Positions 26,301 to 38,300 of a DNA stretch of 64,000 nucleotides are shown piece after piece. Source of the DNA: an uncultured Verrucomicrobiae bacterium (GTDB taxonomy: Bacteria; Verrucomicrobiota; Verrucomicrobiia; Chthoniobacterales; UBA10450); NCBI GenBank assembly GCA_963772365.1, contig CAVYXA010000003.1:160001-224000 (forward strand), written 5' to 3'. Numbering within the stretch: position 1 is the first letter of the stretch; each line of letters begins with the position of its first letter. The position numbers are program-made.

Positions 26301-29300
26301 CGTCCGGAAACGATAACCGGGTGGCGGCATCAGATGTGGGCTGGAGGTTCTCACTGTCGATGTAGATTAGATTGGTCTAAGCGGCGCAACTTAGGTTGCT
26401 GCTTCAACGATTCAACGATTTACCGTTTCTATGCCAACAGGCAACGAGGCCTTAATCGAAATTATTCGCCAAACGATTCGTTCACACGGGCCGCAATCGT
26501 TCGACTGGTTCATGCAACAGGCCCTTTATCATCCCGAGCATGGATATTATGCCAGCGGACGCGCCCGTATCGGACGAAAGGGCGACTACTTCACAAACGT
26601 CAGCGTCGGTCCGTTATTCGGCAAATTGTTAGCCGCGCAATTCAAGGAAATCTGGGAACAGCTCGGGAGGATCGACCCGCCTTCCCAAAGCTCCGGCGCG
26701 GCTGGCAATTTCCTGATCGTCGAGCAAGGCGCTCATGATGGCCAGTTCGCCTGCGACGTTCTTGGGGCGATCCAGGAACACACACCCAAATTTTTTGCCG
26801 CGTTGCGTTATCGAATCATCGAGCCGTTTGCGGTGTGGAAGGATCGACAACGGCAAAACCTCGGCCCGTTTCGTGACAAGGTGGAATGGCGCGATGCTCT
26901 CGAGCCTTTTACTGGCATCCATTTCTCGAACGAACTCCTCGACGCCATGCCGGTCCGATTATTTGAAAATGGAATGGAGAAATTTATCGATATTCGGAAC
27001 GGTGAGTTTGTGTTGTTGACTCGCGAATCGAAAAGTCGGCGCCCGTTTAATCAGGCAGCGCTCGATTGGATCGACAATGTAGCGGCGAAGTTGCAGCGCG
27101 GTTACATCCTCACAATCGATTACGGACGCGAGTGTTCCGAGCCGCCCCGCGATGTCCAGGTTCGGGCGCAACATCGACATCTGGATTCGCCATTGGAACA
27201 AATCGGCGAGGCAGATATTACCGCGCCGGTGGATTGGACTGGCATTATCAGTCGGGCCAGCCAGGCGGGTCTGGATTTGGCCGGATTCACGGACCAACAT
27301 CATTTCCTTACCGGGATCCTTTCGACCTGGCCCGATCTCCTCGCCCGAGTGAATCCAAAGATGAGCCGTGAGCTGAAAACGTTGCTTCATCCGGAGATGC
27401 TGGGGCGCAGTTTCCATGTGCTGGCATTATCAAAGAATGTGAATCGTGGCCTGCCATTAGCTGGTTTTCAGTTGGCCGGAACGCTTTCCCGGTAATTTTC
27501 CGTTTGCAATGATGAACAATGGAGATTCTTGTCTCGCTGGTTCGCAGCTGGGATTTTTCATTTCCGGGATGAAACGTTTTCTCTTTCGCATTCCTTTTTT
27601 ATTTGTCGTCTTTCCCGCGTATTGCTTTGGCCTCAACGGCGTGGTGAATATGTCGCACTACGACACGATGCGGGCCGATTTTGCGCGGATGAAAGCGGAA
27701 GGCATTATCGGAGTCATTCATGAGGCGAGTTATCCGCGATACGAGCGGGACGCCTATTATGCGGCCAGACAGAATGCTGCGACGCGAGCCGGATTACTGT
27801 GGGGCGCCTATCATTACGGTAACGGGAACGATCCGATTCGGCAGGCAGATCACTTCCTGCAAATTGTCTCAAGCGCGTGGGAACGGTCTGACCCGGCTGG
27901 TCAGCCGGACGGCATCCTGTTAGTGTTGGATTTCGAAAAGAACGGGCATTATCCAGGTCGCAGCATGCGGCTCGACCAAGCCGTTGCTTTTGTGGAGAGA
28001 ATTCGGGAACGCACCGGGAAATATCCCGGAATTTACTCGGGCGAATATCATCTACGACAGGTGCTGAAAAGCCCGAGGATCAGCGGAAGCCAAAAGCGAG
28101 TGCTGACGAATTGCTGGTTGTGGCTTGCGAATTATGGCGCAAGACCGGAACCGACTTTGCCGTGGACTCGCTGGCATCTCTGGCAGTATTGCGGCGATGG
28201 GATCTGCCGATTGCCTCGTCGATCCTATCCCAAAAGTGTGGCTAACATCATCAAAGCCGAGCGAAATATTTTTTCTGGAAGCCGCACAGAACTGGAAGCG
28301 TTTTGGCATGACCATGCTTGGCAGCCAGGGGCAGGAACTCCGCGACGCAACGCCGAATCCGTAATGACATTAACTGCCGAGCGATGATTCGAGCGGCGGA
28401 ATCCGGGTTATTCTGGTGCGCCGTCAGATCACAACGACTCGCGAGCGCAAAATTTCTCGACAATTAACGGAAATTCGGCTAAGCCACATGCCGATAATGC
28501 GCTCTTAGATTCACACGGGAGCGCTTAACAAAATCCGCCTCTATGATTCATCGCATTCGAATTCCCGCCGTTATTTTCGCCGGTTTCCTTCTGTCTTCAC
28601 TATCATGCGCAGCGTCTGGTCTGGCTCCTGTTTGGGACCCTACTAGCTCGGGACCATTGGAAAGATACGACAATCCGCCCATTTACATTTACCGGACGGA
28701 GACGTCGCCACGAATGGTGTCGCGGTTTGGCTCGTTCATAAGTTATCAGGCAAATGTTGATGCGAACGGGAACAATATTGTCGGCGACGCGGCCAATGAG
28801 CCATCGATCGCTGTCGATCCTGCAAATCGCAACAACATGGTGATCACCTGGCGGCAATTCGATAGTGTGTTCTCGAATTTCCGGGAGTCCGGTTGGGCTT
28901 ATACCAGCAACGCCGGCGTGAACTGGACCTTCCCGGGTGTTCTGCAGGACAATATTTTCCGCAGCGATCCGGTGGCAGACGCCGATGAAACCGGCCGATT
29001 TTTCTATCTCAGTCTTCAATCCGACACGAACCAATCGTTTTTTTGCGATGACGTGTGGCGTTCAACAAACGGTGGCCAAAGCTGGACTCAAGGAGGGCCG
29101 GGGCACGGAGGAGACAAGGAATGGTTCACCATCGATACGACGAATAGTAGCGGGCACGGCTTTCAGTACCAATATTGGACCGCTTTCTTCAATTGCGATG
29201 GGGGAGCATTCAGCCGATCCACCGACGGCGGCATCAGTTGGATGACTCCGATTGGCACACCCAATAATATTCAGCACGGAACGCTCGATGTTGATACGAA

Positions 29301-35300: not shown

Positions 35301-38300
35301 AATAACGTGGGACTTTGTGGGCAGGTGTTCCTGGCGATCGACCACTCCGGCGGCCCGACTAATAACAACATTTATATGCTGGCCAGTGTGGAGCCCTCCG
35401 GGCGGAACACCACCGACGTGATGTTTGTGCGCAGCACCGACGGCGGACTGACCTTCAGCGCGCCGCACCGGATCAATGACGATGGGCTCACAAATAAATG
35501 GCACTGGTTTGGCACATTCGCCGTAGCTCCGAATGGGCGTCTTGACGCGGTCTGGCTTGACTCCCGCAATGCAGCCAACAACACCGACTCGCAGTTATTC
35601 TATTCTTATAGCACCGATGGCGGCGCGACGTGGGCGGCCAACGTGGCAGTGAGCAATTCGTTTAATCCTATGGAGGGTTATCCGAATCAAAGCAAGATCG
35701 GCGATTACATCACGATCGTATCGGACAATACCGGCGGCAATGTAGCCTATTCGGCCACGTTCAATTTCAACGCGAGCCGTGGTCAGCACGAAGAGGACGT
35801 TTATTACGTCCGAGTGGCACCGCCGGGACTGCCGGTGGCCCAAAGTGCTGTGTCGCGAAAAGTACATGGAGGGGCCGGGACCTTCGATGTTGATCTTGGA
35901 ATCGGAGGGCCACCGGGCATCGAATGTCGCAGTGGCGGAGCCACCAACGATTATACGATAGTGGTGACTTTCGCTGATCCCGTGACAGTGAACGGAAATC
36001 CGCAAGCGCAGGTGATCGCCGGAACGGGAATCGTGGGCAGCGGCGGAGTAAGCAATGGCGGCATGGTGACGGTGAGCGGCAACACAGTGACGATTCCTCT
36101 GACCAATGTGGCCAACGTCCAGACGATCACGGTTCGGCTCAACTCGGTGAATGGTGTGACTAATGTCGATGTTCCAATGAGTGTGTTGATAGGAGACGTG
36201 AATGGGAACGCTACCGTCAACGCGTCCGATGTCAGTCTGACAAAAGCGCAGATCGGCCAGGCTGTAACTGCCTCGAATTTCCGCGAAGACGTCAATGCCA
36301 GCGGCACGATCAACTCCACTGATGCTTCTCAAGTGAAAGCAAACGTGGGCACCGGTCTGCAGTAAACTTATTCCTCGTTTTCTGGAAGACTGTCGATCTT
36401 GAGTCGCAGTCTGTCGGCCGCGCGCTCGATGACGTCGCGCGCCCGGGTGTTTTTTCTCGCGTCTCGCGATGGACCTGATCCATGAATGGATCCATTGCGG
36501 ACTCGATCATGCTAAGTTTCCGGCGAGTTGCTGTCACTTTCCTTTGCAGCTCCGGTTGAGATGATTTATCGCGCCCCGACCACTTCACGTTTGAAGTGCG
36601 AATTGATTTTGTGCGGATGCAGCGGGAGAAAAAAAATCGAGCGCGTCGTTTGAGTTCGGGCTCGCGCCCTTGCAGGGATTACGTTAGGAACGGATCTTTG
36701 AACGGAAAACAACCTGCCTCTTCTCTGGAAGTGCGCCAGTCTCGAGTGCATGGGCGCGGCGTTTACACCACTCGCTCAATTCCAGCAGGCAAACGAATCA
36801 TCGAATACACCGGCGAGCGGGTTTTGTGGGAAGATGCTCCTGACGACGAGGACGATCCGCACACCTTCAATTTCGGTCTGGAAAACGGCTTGGTTATCAA
36901 CCCGGAAATTGGCGGCAACGATGCGCGCTGGATCAATCATTCCTGCGAGCCGAACTGCGAGGCGATCGAGGAGGACGAGCGCATTTTTATTTACGCGTTG
37001 CGCGACATCGAACCGGGCGAGGAACTCTTTTACGATTATGCGCTGGAAATCGACGAGCCGATTACGGCTGAGTCGGCCACGAAACACAAGTGTTGCTGTG
37101 GCAGTGCAAAATGTCGGGGAACGATGCTCGAATTAGAAAGTCCTCTTCAGGCAGCCAGGAATTTCGCAAAAACAATTAGTGATTAGCGATAGCCATTCTC
37201 GACTGCCGCATTCTTTTCCGGCTCGATGATCAACGATCTCTGGTACAAAAACGCCGTTATTTATTGCCTGTCGGTTGGCACTTACATGGATTCTGACGCC
37301 GATGGGGATGGAGATTTTCGAGGACTGATGCGCCAGCTCGATTATCTGCAGGGACTTGGCGTCACCGCCATTTGGCTGATGCCGTTTCAAACATCACCGC
37401 GCCGGGATGATGGTTACGACGTGTCGGACTATTACAATGTCGATCCTCGTTATGGCACGCTCGGAGATTTTGTAGAGTTCACTCACGCTGCCAGACAACG
37501 TGGCATTCGGGTTCTAATCGATCTCGTGGTCAACCACACCTCCGACCAGCACCCGTGGTTCAAGGAAGCTCGCCGCGATCCAAACTCCAAATATCGCCAG
37601 TGGTATGTTTGGTCCAAGAAAAAGCCGCCGCGGGTGAACCAGGGTATGGTTTTTCCAGGCGTGCAAAAAACGACCTGGACCTATGATTCCAAGGCGCGGG
37701 CCTGGTACTTTCATCGGTTTTACAATTTCCAACCCGATCTCAATAGCGAAAATCCCGATGTCCAGGCGGAGATTTTGAAAATCATGGGCTTCTGGATTCA
37801 GCTGGGCGTCTCGGGGTTCCGCATGGATGCTGTCCCCTTCATTATTTCTGAGAAAGGCCCGGCGGTCCGAAAACCAAAGTTGCACTTCGACATGCTGCGT
37901 TCTTTTCGCGAGTTCCTTCAATGGCGACAAGGTGATTGCATCATCCTGGCTGAGGCAAATGTCCTACCCGAAACCGATCTGGAGTATTTCGGCGACGAAG
38001 GCGAACGAATGCACATGATGTTCAATTTTCAGGTAAACCAAAACCTGTTTTACGCCCTGGCCGCGGCGGATATCCGTCCGCTAATCGAGGCGCTCGAAGC
38101 GACAAAGCCGCGTCCTGCGACTGCCCAGTGGGGAATGTTTTTGCGTAATCACGATGAACTGGATCTGGGTCGTTTGACTATGCAACAGCGGCAGACTGTT
38201 TTCCGCGCGTTTGGACCCACAAAGAATATGCAACTTTACAATCGCGGAATTCGACGCCGCCTCGCGCCGATGTTGGGCGGTAACCGCAGGCGGATCGAGC

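Follow-up and report, generated by a model that had tools for sequence, protein, structure and literature searches.

A C-terminal X-dockerin module without a detectable cohesin on many unrelated exported proteins of a Chthoniobacterales bacterium

Many unrelated Sec-type exported proteins of an uncultured Verrucomicrobiae bacterium share one C-terminal module, as was supported by our analysis of a 64,000-nucleotide window (positions 160,001 to 224,000 of contig CAVYXA010000003.1, here C3) and of the genome around it. The module is larger than a dockerin, forming a unit of ~175 residues in which an Ig-like beta-sandwich of ~118 residues (X) is joined to the dockerin. With middling confidence, we favor the explanation that this X-dockerin (X-Doc) dyad serves for docking: it would keep exoenzymes attached to a receptor that is not a cohesin of the Pfam type.

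Results

The genome searched comprises 3.35 Mb on 6 contigs and is 90.3% complete, and a gene could be absent from the assembly. A six-frame search with PF00404 yielded 41 Dockerin_1 matches over the cut-off; the 33 genes counted in the first-pass annotation were thus confirmed in kind, but the six-frame count is 41 ORFs. The matches are confined to the C-terminus, ending 0-19 residues before the stop codon: 39 of the 41 lie within the 12 residues claimed earlier, and the other two at 16 and 19. Of the 41 ORFs, nine do not reach 250 aa, which agrees with the earlier warning about frameshift fragments and implies fewer intact genes. Leu-Pro is the C-terminus in 21 of the 41 dockerin ORFs and Pro is the last residue in 28, compared with a Leu-Pro end in 17 of the 2,731 other ORFs with 200 aa or more, a set that includes non-coding ORFs. 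Pfam scans covering the window genes and 32 of the 37 non-window ORFs (all but the five shortest fragments) bore out the claim that very different bodies carry one tail, including three S8 subtilases, astacin, M14 carboxypeptidase, multicopper oxidase, Kelch, FG-GAP, PKD, BNR, DUF5122, LamG, DUF11 and PATR; no cellulase was present among the Pfam-annotated bodies. An N-terminus resembling a signal peptide was present in 23 of the 36 ORFs above 150 aa, as judged by a crude hydropathy rule, so that the Sec-type signals described previously hold for this part, but the remaining 13, several of which are fragments or have doubtful starts, fail the rule.

The window locus contains four ORFs in tandem on the + strand, encoding three BNR/Asp-box propellers and one Kelch propeller according to Pfam. 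Each carries one C-terminal Dockerin_1 (E 3e-10 to 3e-9, scores above the 22.9-bit cut-off), confirming what had been stated for these four genes, and all four N-termini are signal-peptide-like by the same crude rule. Gene 1 (28543..30513, + strand, 656 aa; Pfam BNR and Dockerin_1) encodes a putative exported BNR/Asp-box beta-propeller with an X-Doc end, and its signal-peptide-like N-terminus reads MIHRIRIPAVIFAGFLLSSLSC... The stored gene call P0151 has a later start and 599 aa; the longer start is preferred because the upstream LERYDNPP is conserved in paralogues and metagenome homologues. Its Ig-like X domain (29986..30339, +; tail sequence and A2 profile match C3:189986-190339) has the motif SRKxHG..G.FD..L....ECR, and its dockerin (30340..30510, +; PF00404 match C3:190340-190492, Pfam residues 600-650) has two calcium loops and the end ...GTGLP. 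Gene 2 (30672..32261, +, 529 aa) is the putative exported Kelch beta-propeller with an X-Doc end, identified by Kelch families and by Dockerin_1 at residues 477-529; its X domain (31734..32099, +, start approximate; alignments A1 and A2) belongs to a long subtype with a Cys pair, and its dockerin (32100..32258, +; PF00404 match C3:192100-192258) ends in ...IIKQNL followed directly by the stop (distance 0).

Genes 3 and 4 are putative exported BNR propeller paralogues by ORF and Pfam evidence. Gene 3 spans 32317..34326 (+, 669 aa from TTG), and an ATG start at 32350 (658 aa), which the stored 658-aa window protein P0232 fits, is likelier than TTG. Its X domain (33799..34152, +) is part of the first sequence in alignments A1, A2 and A3, its dockerin (34153..34323, +; PF00404 match C3:194153-194305) ends in ...GTGLP, and its tail was the sequence used for the structure model. 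For gene 4 (34356..36365, +, 669 aa from TTG), the ATG at 34386 (MKIRIIILNIIASLFSLSLAAVASAQ) is likewise the likelier start; the X domain lies at 35838..36191 (+; A2 profile match C3:195838-196191) and the dockerin, with the end ...GTGLQ, at 36192..36362 (+; PF00404 match C3:196192-196344). The module has been homogenised between genes 1 and 3 by gene conversion, with the tract at 29911..30510 (partner 33724-34323, both +) found by sequence comparison: the last 600 nt before the stop differ at 3 positions only, all within the final 13 nt, and upstream of this tract the identity drops to 43-72% in 150-nt windows.

Directly upstream of the dockerin, X is full in 34 of the 41 ORFs, partial in five truncated ORFs and absent in two short fragments, and the bare dockerin module of the earlier reading is therefore replaced by an X-Doc dyad. 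X matched no Pfam family above the cut-off and no NCBIfam family. In two alignments, one of 30 paralogous tails and one of 81 sequences, conservation reaches 90% or more, up to invariance, in both EF-hand-like loops (D120-N-N..D131 and D151-N-N-G156..D162), at the helix lysines K136 and K167, at F148-R149 and at P175, the last residue. In addition, Ser/Thr at dockerin loop positions 10-11 is nearly invariant in the 81 diverse sequences, and the counterpart of K136 in the Clostridium thermocellum XynY dockerin is the Lys of a Lys-Arg pair that we take to be a cohesin contact. Of 120 complete relatives, 98 have a module that ends in a hydrophobic residue and Pro ([LVIP]-Pro); the terminal Pro is the nearly invariant last residue of a homologous module, and the Leu-Pro end no longer counts as the independent evidence for which it had been taken. 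The module has been shuffled among unrelated bodies: its tree contains a clade of 10 (support 100/96) and a clade of 16 (98/98) with body types mixed across both, and metagenome homologues have the same BNR body with other C-terminal tails.

AlphaFold2 confidently predicted X and dockerin as one rigid unit of ~175 residues (mean pLDDT 98.1, pTM 0.92 over all 175 residues with the 81-row alignment; 79.1 and 0.72 with the 30-row alignment). Foldseek placed CipA type II X-dockerin chains among the best rows, with 2b59_B at E 1.4e-2 and probability 0.85 over 148 columns of its 156-residue chain, and 5k39_B, 4fl4_C and 3kcp_A at probabilities of 0.95, 0.89 and 0.87; geometrically, the likeness to clostridial X-Doc is weak (TM 0.29-0.33, rmsd about 12 A). 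Among PDB entries, the A1 profile matched type I dockerins (2ccl_B, E 7e-9) and, over its positions 57-175, the CipA X-Doc 2b59_B (E 2.1e-5). X alone had no sequence match to solved X modules, and at E<=10 only three MlaB-type STAS chains appeared, each with E >1. Its predicted fold is a generic Ig-like sandwich, the best VIA Z values being 7.9 and 6.4, under the tool's own mark of 8, and the nearest folds include adhesin domains of intimin/invasin as well as the Ig-like domains found at the N-termini of glycoside hydrolases and of a polysaccharide lyase.

Searches of relatives, whose family tallies rest on related, non-independent genomes, found X in 128 of 201 sampled genomes (64%, in place of the 23% given earlier) and 30 of 36 genera of the Chthoniobacterales family, including the two unpublished genomes G533 and G553; at phylum level, the count was just 6 of the 401 genomes sampled. 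About 25 family genomes had at least 22 scored X matches each. Judged from these sequence matches, the X-Doc dyad marks the family. Worldwide, the X profile matched 4,429 representative protein clusters at E<=1e-3; among the best 150 relatives, 120 had 50-70 residues between the end of X and the C-terminus, and Dockerin_1 came right after X in 47 of the best 60.

No PF00963 cohesin was matched at E<=10 in this 90.3%-complete genome, which agrees with the earlier negative search, and cohesin is missing across the family as well, where the Pfam model exceeded its cut-off in 1 of the 201 sampled genomes against 128 for X. The one genome over the cut-off, G421, encodes P0271, a 207-aa protein with a signal peptide, Cohesin (E 1.3e-11) and VPDSG-CTERM (E 4.7e-7). 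Its relatives in metagenomes number 168, many of them Cohesin+PEP-CTERM proteins of about 190 aa, and exosortase-anchored single cohesins are therefore real. A lineage-tuned profile from 120 small cohesin+PEP/VPDSG-CTERM proteins, the listed relatives of the G421 protein, had no match on its cohesin part among 28,746 six-frame ORFs with filters off. Over the cut-off, the genome has 17 matches to PEP-CTERM and about 9 to VPDSG-CTERM, and most of the proteins concerned are small, with about 200-250 aa; 27 such small proteins, considered as candidate receptors, were not supported in that role, with hhalign probabilities of at most 2.2% against the cohesin core. Three secretin genes are present.

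Discussion

The most reasonable function of X-Doc is calcium-dependent attachment to a structure at or outside the envelope, because the calcium-binding residues are conserved. First, the N-terminal signal peptide would route the protein via Sec. Second, the outer membrane would be crossed, probably by a secretin-type pathway. Third, outside the cell the dockerin would take two calcium ions, and X-Doc would plug non-covalently into a putative receptor, not a Pfam-type cohesin, that is displayed at the surface of the cell or lies within its own matrix. As a result, S8, astacin and M14 peptidases, the multicopper oxidase and the propellers may be kept by the cell instead of diffusing into soil. 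On grounds of general enzymology, the terminal Pro may in addition shield the tail against carboxypeptidases.

Unlikely, but deserving attention, is the alternative that X-Doc is an adhesin to external material (soil polymers, minerals or other cells), sending the enzymes to substrate or prey and not holding them on the producer. A report on giant Omnitrophota proteins proposes their non-cellulosomal dockerins as adhesins (PMC10066038), the carbohydrate-enzyme and intimin/invasin folds nearest to X point in the same direction, and an own-surface receptor was found neither by the cohesin model and tuned profile nor among the 27 small CTERM proteins. However, these fold matches are generic (Z <8), the dockerin retains residues of the protein-binding type I dockerin, and the bodies, mostly peptidases and propellers, have no common substrate for a single binding module.

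We attach a somewhat smaller chance to a partnerless tail that aids folding, stability or secretion, in which the dockerin would fold on a rigid X when triggered by calcium and the terminal Pro would block carboxypeptidases. Calcium-binding repeats assist other secreted proteins in a comparable way. The conservation of the calcium loops and terminal Pro, the export of an M14 carboxypeptidase with the same tail and the lack of a detected partner in the genome searches are consistent with such an aid, but it leaves unexplained why surface residues on both dockerin helices, namely the two lysines K136 and K167 and the Ser/Thr of loop positions 10-11, are nearly invariant in the 81 sequences, as well as the wide occurrence of the same BNR body with quite different tails.

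It is improbable that an ordinary cohesin-dockerin system has been overlooked, with its cohesin in the unassembled ~10% or too divergent for the models. The incompleteness of the genome and the G421 protein with its 168 metagenome relatives would allow for it; on the other hand, the family ratio of 1/201 for cohesin against 128/201 for X is too lopsided for an assembly gap to serve as the general explanation, and the tuned profile and hhalign comparisons argue against a divergent cohesin. Finally, a processed sorting signal, cleaved or transferred at the tail or Leu-Pro end by a dedicated enzyme for covalent anchoring, is very improbable despite the strictly C-terminal position, the conserved [LVIP]-Pro end and the exosortase-type signals on other proteins here, since the tail has no short motif, transmembrane helix or basic cluster and is confidently predicted as a 175-residue globular unit, we know of no candidate processing enzyme, and X and VPDSG-CTERM are uncoupled by genus (X 4/4 and VPDSG 0/4 in g3; 7/7 and 1/7 in g212; 0/4 and 3/4 in g209). 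The sorting or anchoring tag proposed in the first-pass annotation thus survives as a shared tail with conserved calcium residues and no cohesin, but not as a processed signal like PEP-CTERM.

Our preferred docking module is closest in architecture to the clostridial type II X-dockerin, represented here by C. thermocellum CipA (PDB 2B59, 3KCP, 4FL4, 5G5D, 5K39) and Acetivibrio cellulolyticus (4U3S, 4WI0). The clostridial dyad anchors its complex to the cell surface. As in these scaffoldins, an Ig-like X stands right before a C-terminal dockerin with two calcium loops, here predicted as one rigid unit. In contrast, the genome has no detected cohesin, whether type II or other, dozens of enzymes carry the dyad in place of a scaffoldin, the geometric match is poor (TM about 0.3), X alone has no sequence likeness to clostridial X, and the host is an aerobic-soil-type diderm verrucomicrobium. 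Type I dockerins (PF00404; XynY/Xyn10B, PDB 1OHZ, 2CCL) have the same duplication of the calcium loops and the same conserved Lys at position 17 of the helix; here, in contrast, X precedes the dockerin, the conserved end is ...G-x-G-L-P or ...K-Q-N-L-P, and a cohesin partner is absent. PEP-CTERM and VPDSG-CTERM signals, which occur in the same genome, are also strictly C-terminal, on exported proteins and lineage-expanded, whereas they consist of about 25 residues (motif, transmembrane helix, basic tail) and X-Doc is a folded module on large enzymes. The small exosortase-anchored single cohesins (about 190-207 aa; P0271 and relatives), which resemble ScaE, a single cohesin that Ruminococcus flavefaciens anchors by sortase, are the socket type expected for X-Doc, but none was found in this genome and 200 of the 201 family genomes sampled lack them.

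As in other orphan (non-cellulosomal) dockerins, on which a survey by Peer et al. in 2009 reportedly touched, the module occurs on peptidases and other non-cellulolytic proteins. The hypothetical 'planctosome' of freshwater Planctomycetes likewise has M14 and M12-family peptidases with dockerins, but includes cohesins, which are absent as a rule in this family (PMC6461901). Orphan dockerins are already known, as was conceded earlier and as we agree; what is new is the X-Doc dyad and the scale on which it occurs, and the orphan-dockerin literature, in the parts surveyed, does not describe an obligatory uncatalogued X or >20 copies per genome. Dozens of unrelated exported proteins here carry one putatively calcium-binding 'plug' in two parts, for which the usual 'socket' is missing, and this makes the lineage well suited to finding out what orphan dockerin plugs attach to.

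Dockerin tails in the window and across the genome

Four open reading frames lie in tandem on the forward strand at window positions 28543-36365 (genes 1 to 4, at 28543-30513, 30672-32261, 32317-34326 and 34356-36365), encoding proteins of 656, 529, 669 and 669 aa separated by gaps of 29-158 nt. By Pfam, genes 1, 3 and 4 carry BNR/Asp-box signals and gene 2 carries Kelch repeats; among solved structures the BNR body came closest to sialidases, at only E ~0.03, and an NCBIfam scan of the four proteins added nothing of substance. No RNA or DNA sequencing runs were listed for 28543-36365. 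Each protein carries one Dockerin_1 domain at its extreme end (E 3e-10 to 3e-9, 37.5-40.5 bits; the Pfam gathering cut-off for PF00404 is 22.9 bits), and the tails contain the two tandem segments of ~22 residues by which a dockerin is recognized, each with an EF-hand-like calcium loop (Asp/Asn at 1, 3, 5, 9 and 12) and then a helix. All four N-termini are hydrophobic and resemble signal peptides by a crude rule, and a more typical signal peptide starts from an internal ATG in genes 3 (at 32350) and 4 (at 34386).

The first-pass annotation had described dockerins at the C-termini of 33 proteins with diverse bodies, and our analyses supported both parts of this description. A six-frame search of the 3.35-Mb genome, which is 90.3% complete, gave 41 Dockerin_1 matches over the cut-off; the distance from match end to stop was at most 12 residues in 39 of these ORFs and 16 and 19 in the remaining two. 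The terminus was Leu-Pro in 21 and Pro in 28 of the 41 ORFs, compared with Leu-Pro in 17 of the 2,731 remaining ORFs of 200 aa or more. Nine of the 41 are fragments shorter than 250 aa. The bodies, as annotated by a Pfam scan of 32 of the 37 ORFs outside the window, include three S8 subtilases, an astacin, an M14 carboxypeptidase and a multicopper oxidase, together with Kelch, FG-GAP, PKD, BNR, DUF5122, LamG, DUF11 and PATR domains.

Two side observations concern these ORFs. First, a 151-aa ORF at C4:65531-65983 (+), on another contig of this genome (G000), joins a PemK/MazF-like toxin domain (residues 5-97) to an in-frame second dockerin half, ~250 nt downstream of an intact gene for the complete tail (C4:63304-65289); it looks like a dockerin remnant beside an inserted toxin-antitoxin gene. 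Second, a motif K(K/R)xSxxxSAFFNxRxL precedes the hydrophobic core of the signal peptide in four ORFs, at C1:549851-552670 (-), C3:315121-317346 (+), C3:492346-496146 (-) and C5:244988-247585 (+) in contig coordinates, and could be a lineage-specific extended signal region. Three of the four end in the complete tail described below, and the fourth lies just upstream of a fragment of it (C5:248233-248856) and could represent the 5' half of a disrupted gene.

A conserved domain precedes the dockerin

The earlier description covered the dockerin alone. Its C-terminal position holds, but comparison of the last 185 residues of the 41 ORFs showed that the conserved unit is larger, since an Ig-like domain of ~118 residues, here called X, directly precedes the dockerin to form a C-terminal dyad of ~175 residues (X-Doc). 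X follows the pattern VSRKTHGxAGxFDIxLPLTGxPGIECR ... TF ... GNxVTVxLTxV..Q.I.V.L, and its profile of 121 positions found a full X in 34 of the 41 ORFs and a partial one in five truncated ORFs, X being absent from two short fragments. In an alignment of 30 paralogous tails, numbered along the 175 residues, ten X columns are invariant (R7, H10, F16, D17, L20, E29, R31, F45, L88 and V104), as are nine dockerin columns, among them the Asp of both calcium loops (D120, D131, D151 and D162). When 51 relatives were added to give 81 rows, D120, V127 and D131 remained invariant, and K136, K167, F148, R149, D151, G156, D162 and the terminal P175 were conserved in at least 90%.

X was also considered as a member of an already known family, and this was rejected after searches of PDB sequences, Pfam and the ESM Atlas gave weak matches or leads only. 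When the whole window proteins were scanned, neither Pfam nor NCBIfam matched X at the thresholds applied. Searched alone, it gave weak SpaA_4 matches in 10 of 30 sequences (best E 5.4e-5) besides scattered single matches in Pfam, only three MlaB-type STAS chains among PDB sequences (E 1.2-1.6), and an ESM Atlas lead to Big_5/CopC clusters at 0.77. As to likeness of X to the nine-stranded cohesin jelly roll, there was no match of X alone to Pfam Cohesin at E<=1, no cohesin among the top 50 VIA rows, and a sole cohesin in the Foldseek list (2vo8, rank 44, probability 0.12).

Predicted structure of the tail

With the 30 paralogues as input, AlphaFold2 returned a mean pLDDT of 79.1 and a pTM of 0.72, X being confident and the dockerin not; with 81 sequences the values rose to 98.1 and 0.92 over all 175 residues, so that the prediction is of a single rigid body made up of X and the dockerin, with dockerin helices modelled at residues 129-137 and 160-168. 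The fold of X is a generic Ig-like sandwich. Its best VIA neighbours were an amylase N-domain (Z 7.9, later 6.4), CopC and intimin/invasin domains, and its top Foldseek neighbours were S-layer SbsC domains (E 7e-4), all of them under the trust level that the tool advises.

Searched with the 81-row model, Foldseek listed the type II X-dockerin chains of C. thermocellum CipA and A. cellulolyticus, with 2b59_B aligned over 148 columns of 156 residues (probability 0.85) and 5k39_B reaching probability 0.95. Taken together, the CipA/ScaA chains scored probabilities of 0.63-0.95, but TM values of 0.26-0.33 and an rmsd of ~12 A. The sequence profile of the tail matched type I dockerins in the PDB at E 7e-9 and the CipA X-dockerin at E 2e-5, the latter alignment reaching through part of X, while X alone found no X-dockerin chain among PDB sequences at E<=10. 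We conclude that the tail has the predicted architecture of an X-dockerin dyad. As in the type II/III dyads, an Ig-like X lies directly N-terminal to the dockerin and is predicted to pack with it as one unit; those dyads, however, have a type II/III cohesin on a surface-anchored scaffoldin, whereas no cohesin was found here. The tail also differs from the CTD of Type IX secretion, a terminal beta-sandwich, in that the X sandwich is non-terminal because the dockerin comes after it. A two-copy complex prediction with the 81-row alignment, run without controls, scored 0.00 against a mark of 0.42 and speaks neither for nor against self-association.

Distribution and exchange of the tail

Among 1.84 billion representative clusters, the X profile matched 4,429, of which 3,042 were at E<=1e-10. 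In 120 of the best 150 relatives, X is followed by 50-70 residues up to the C-terminus, and 98 of these 120 end in xP; the others comprise 8 truncated sequences, 3 with 21-49 residues after X, 17 with 71-100 and 2 with still longer ends. Dockerin_1 directly follows X in 47 of the best 60 relatives, and 4 of the other 13 break off just past X. For a single-tail query, close relatives came from soil MAGs that bear the labels Chthoniobacterales, Verrucomicrobiae or 'Candidatus Udaeobacter', and two tail relatives titled as other taxa may be binning errors. In a sample of 401 genomes from the phylum, 6 contained X. Within the family, where the tallies take in the unpublished genomes G533 and G553, 128 of 201 sampled genomes carried it, as did 81 of 114 of high quality and 30 of 36 genera, and about 25 of the 201 gave at least 22 matches.

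By several signs, the module moves between bodies like a cassette. The maximum-likelihood tree of the 30 tails resolved two well-supported clades of 10 and 16 members, body types being mixed in both, and the clade with the long X includes both end types, ...GTGLP and ...KQNLP. Furthermore, genes 1 and 3 differ at only 3 positions in their last 600 nt (29911-30510 versus 33724-34323), compared with 43-72% identity over the remainder, a pattern that indicates recent gene conversion of the 3' end that encodes the module. Across most of this stretch, gene 4 shows 93-95% identity.

The BNR body is common in metagenomes, where 7,394 of 8,000 scored candidates matched at E<=1e-3 and the best 120 were at least 70% identical. 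It bears X-Doc, a Pro/Thr-rich tail ending in ...PRP, a DUF11-containing tail and others; because one conserved body bears differing tails, its C-terminal appendages are interchangeable. Homologues of the gene 1 body at this identity that lack X-Doc are P0172, P0186, P0189, P0192, P0196, P0209, P0236 and P0248; such versions have a long Thr/Pro/Ala-rich linker and then a basic Pro-rich end, ...PRPTPTPRxxPTPRxRPTPPPRP, and still others carry, at the C-terminus, either the DUF11-containing tail or a repeated '...VEVYDL' domain.

Rare relatives break the rule of one C-terminal tail, namely P0001 (911 aa), P0002 (1,828 aa), P0004 (923 aa) and P0138 (579 aa); their departures are two or three X together with two dockerins in a single Kelch protein, or an X near the N-terminus (P0138, residues 30-150). 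In addition, the metagenome homologues P0166 and P0169 keep X and a ...HSIP end and have degenerate loops (for example ...VDRPDQQQL... versus the consensus ...VN(A/S)SD...), so that their dockerins, judged by these residues, may no longer bind calcium.

Proposed function of the X-Doc tail

We propose that X-Doc would act as a calcium-dependent docking module on Sec-type exported enzymes, since the calcium ligands and the lysines of the dockerin helices are conserved, the dyad is predicted to be rigid and sits exclusively at the C-terminus of exported enzymes, and X-Doc modules of cellulosomes anchor to surfaces. Passage through the outer membrane might proceed via secretins, three of which are encoded in the genome. 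That the tail tethers its enzymes to a receptor on the cell's own surface or in its own matrix, other than a Pfam-type cohesin, has in our estimation about an even chance of being right. More tentatively, X-Doc could be the plug of a cohesin-independent surface display peculiar to soil Chthoniobacterales, in which dozens of peptidases, oxidases and propellers would coat the cell, held there by a receptor of a new class, and X would give specificity as cohesin recognition does in cellulosomes.

Binding of the module to external material rather than to the producing cell we regard as unlikely. Somewhat less likely again, the dyad could be a folding or stability aid without any partner, which would leave the conserved helix lysines unexplained.

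It is also improbable that an ordinary cohesin is present and was missed. The absence of cohesins reported earlier was reproduced here, PF00963 having no match in the genome at E<=10, and Pfam Cohesin exceeded its cut-off in only 1 of the 201 sampled family genomes (G421). The protein in question (L144:1381-2004 (-), contig C3 of G421) has 207 aa, a signal peptide, a Cohesin domain (E 1.3e-11) and a VPDSG-CTERM signal (E 4.7e-7); transposase-like ORFs (3-506) flank its gene, which may thus have been acquired. With its 168 relatives, many of them annotated as Cohesin plus PEP-CTERM, it demonstrates that exosortase-anchored single cohesins exist, and these would be natural sockets for X-Doc. A lineage-tuned profile built from 120 listed relatives of the 168 was run with filters off on 28,746 six-frame ORFs; its best matches were all on the PEP-CTERM end, and its cohesin part gave no domain with an independent E <0.2. 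Neither profile showed the partner expected of a type I dockerin, a cohesin encoded by the organism that carries it.

About 30 small PEP-/VPDSG-CTERM proteins are encoded in the genome, with mostly unrelated middle domains. They were considered as hidden cohesins, but hhalign comparison of 27 of them (170-299 aa) with the cohesin core gave probabilities of 0.1-2.2% throughout. Their genes showed no proximity to X-Doc genes, with a median distance of 41,190 bp versus 41,354 bp at random (P 0.49, 2,000 placements) and 6 of 33 within 10 kb versus 5.4 expected, and VPDSG-CTERM and X were uncorrelated across the genera of the family sample. The idea that these small proteins are the sockets for X-Doc gained no support, although those with PEP-CTERM may still qualify.

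The least supported reading, a processed sorting signal, is very improbable: the PEP-CTERM/VPDSG-CTERM signals combine a short motif, a transmembrane helix and a basic cluster at the extreme C-terminus, whereas the tails end in ...NSTDASQVKANVGTGLP or ...IIKQNLP with no such motif, hydrophobic helix or Arg/Lys cluster, and the Leu-Pro end is simply the conserved last residue of the module. True PEP-/VPDSG-CTERM signals sit on other proteins of the genome; in the window, VPDSG-CTERM motifs lie at 14265-14342 (-) on a 210-aa frame and at 29-100 (+) on a 289-aa frame, the first motif being the top scorer of the genome (44.2 bits).

Relation to known dockerins and significance

Since 2009, many genomes have been seen to carry dockerins but no cohesins, and Peer et al. 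reportedly described such orphan dockerins in that year. Their partner is still only guessed at in two papers, of which one takes them for adhesins (PMC10066038) and the other proposes a peptidase 'planctosome' with dockerins and also with cohesins (PMC6461901). The planctosome model thus has cohesins, whereas the Chthoniobacterales family with X has nearly none. A survey of cellulosome genomes, in one passage, names the PVC group just for one cohesin-bearing species (PMC11557425). Among the titles and abstract openings listed for dockerin literature on Chthoniobacterales, Udaeobacter or Verrucomicrobia, none concerned this X-Doc module, although full texts and papers beyond those listed may differ, and the word 'dockerin' was absent from the listed papers on Udaeobacter, Chthoniobacter and Chthoniobacterales. 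What is new here is the obligatory and uncatalogued X, the very confident model of the dyad and the scale of the cohesin-free expansion. With 4,429 clusters, no Pfam match above the cut-off and no NCBIfam model, X merits a family entry of its own.

This bacterial family offers an unusually clean test case, with one defined module of 175 residues, a very confident model, assayable enzymes, tens of copies per genome and hardly any cohesin across its 201 sampled genomes. The order Chthoniobacterales includes 'Candidatus Udaeobacter', which is among the most dominant soil groups according to the abstract of PMC7343977. Were the tail to keep peptidases and oxidases on the cell, this would bear on nutrient acquisition by such bacteria in soil. 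Furthermore, if cohesin-independent display were true, it would provide the first defined class of partner for orphan dockerins and would explain how abundant, streamlined soil bacteria retain their exoenzymes.
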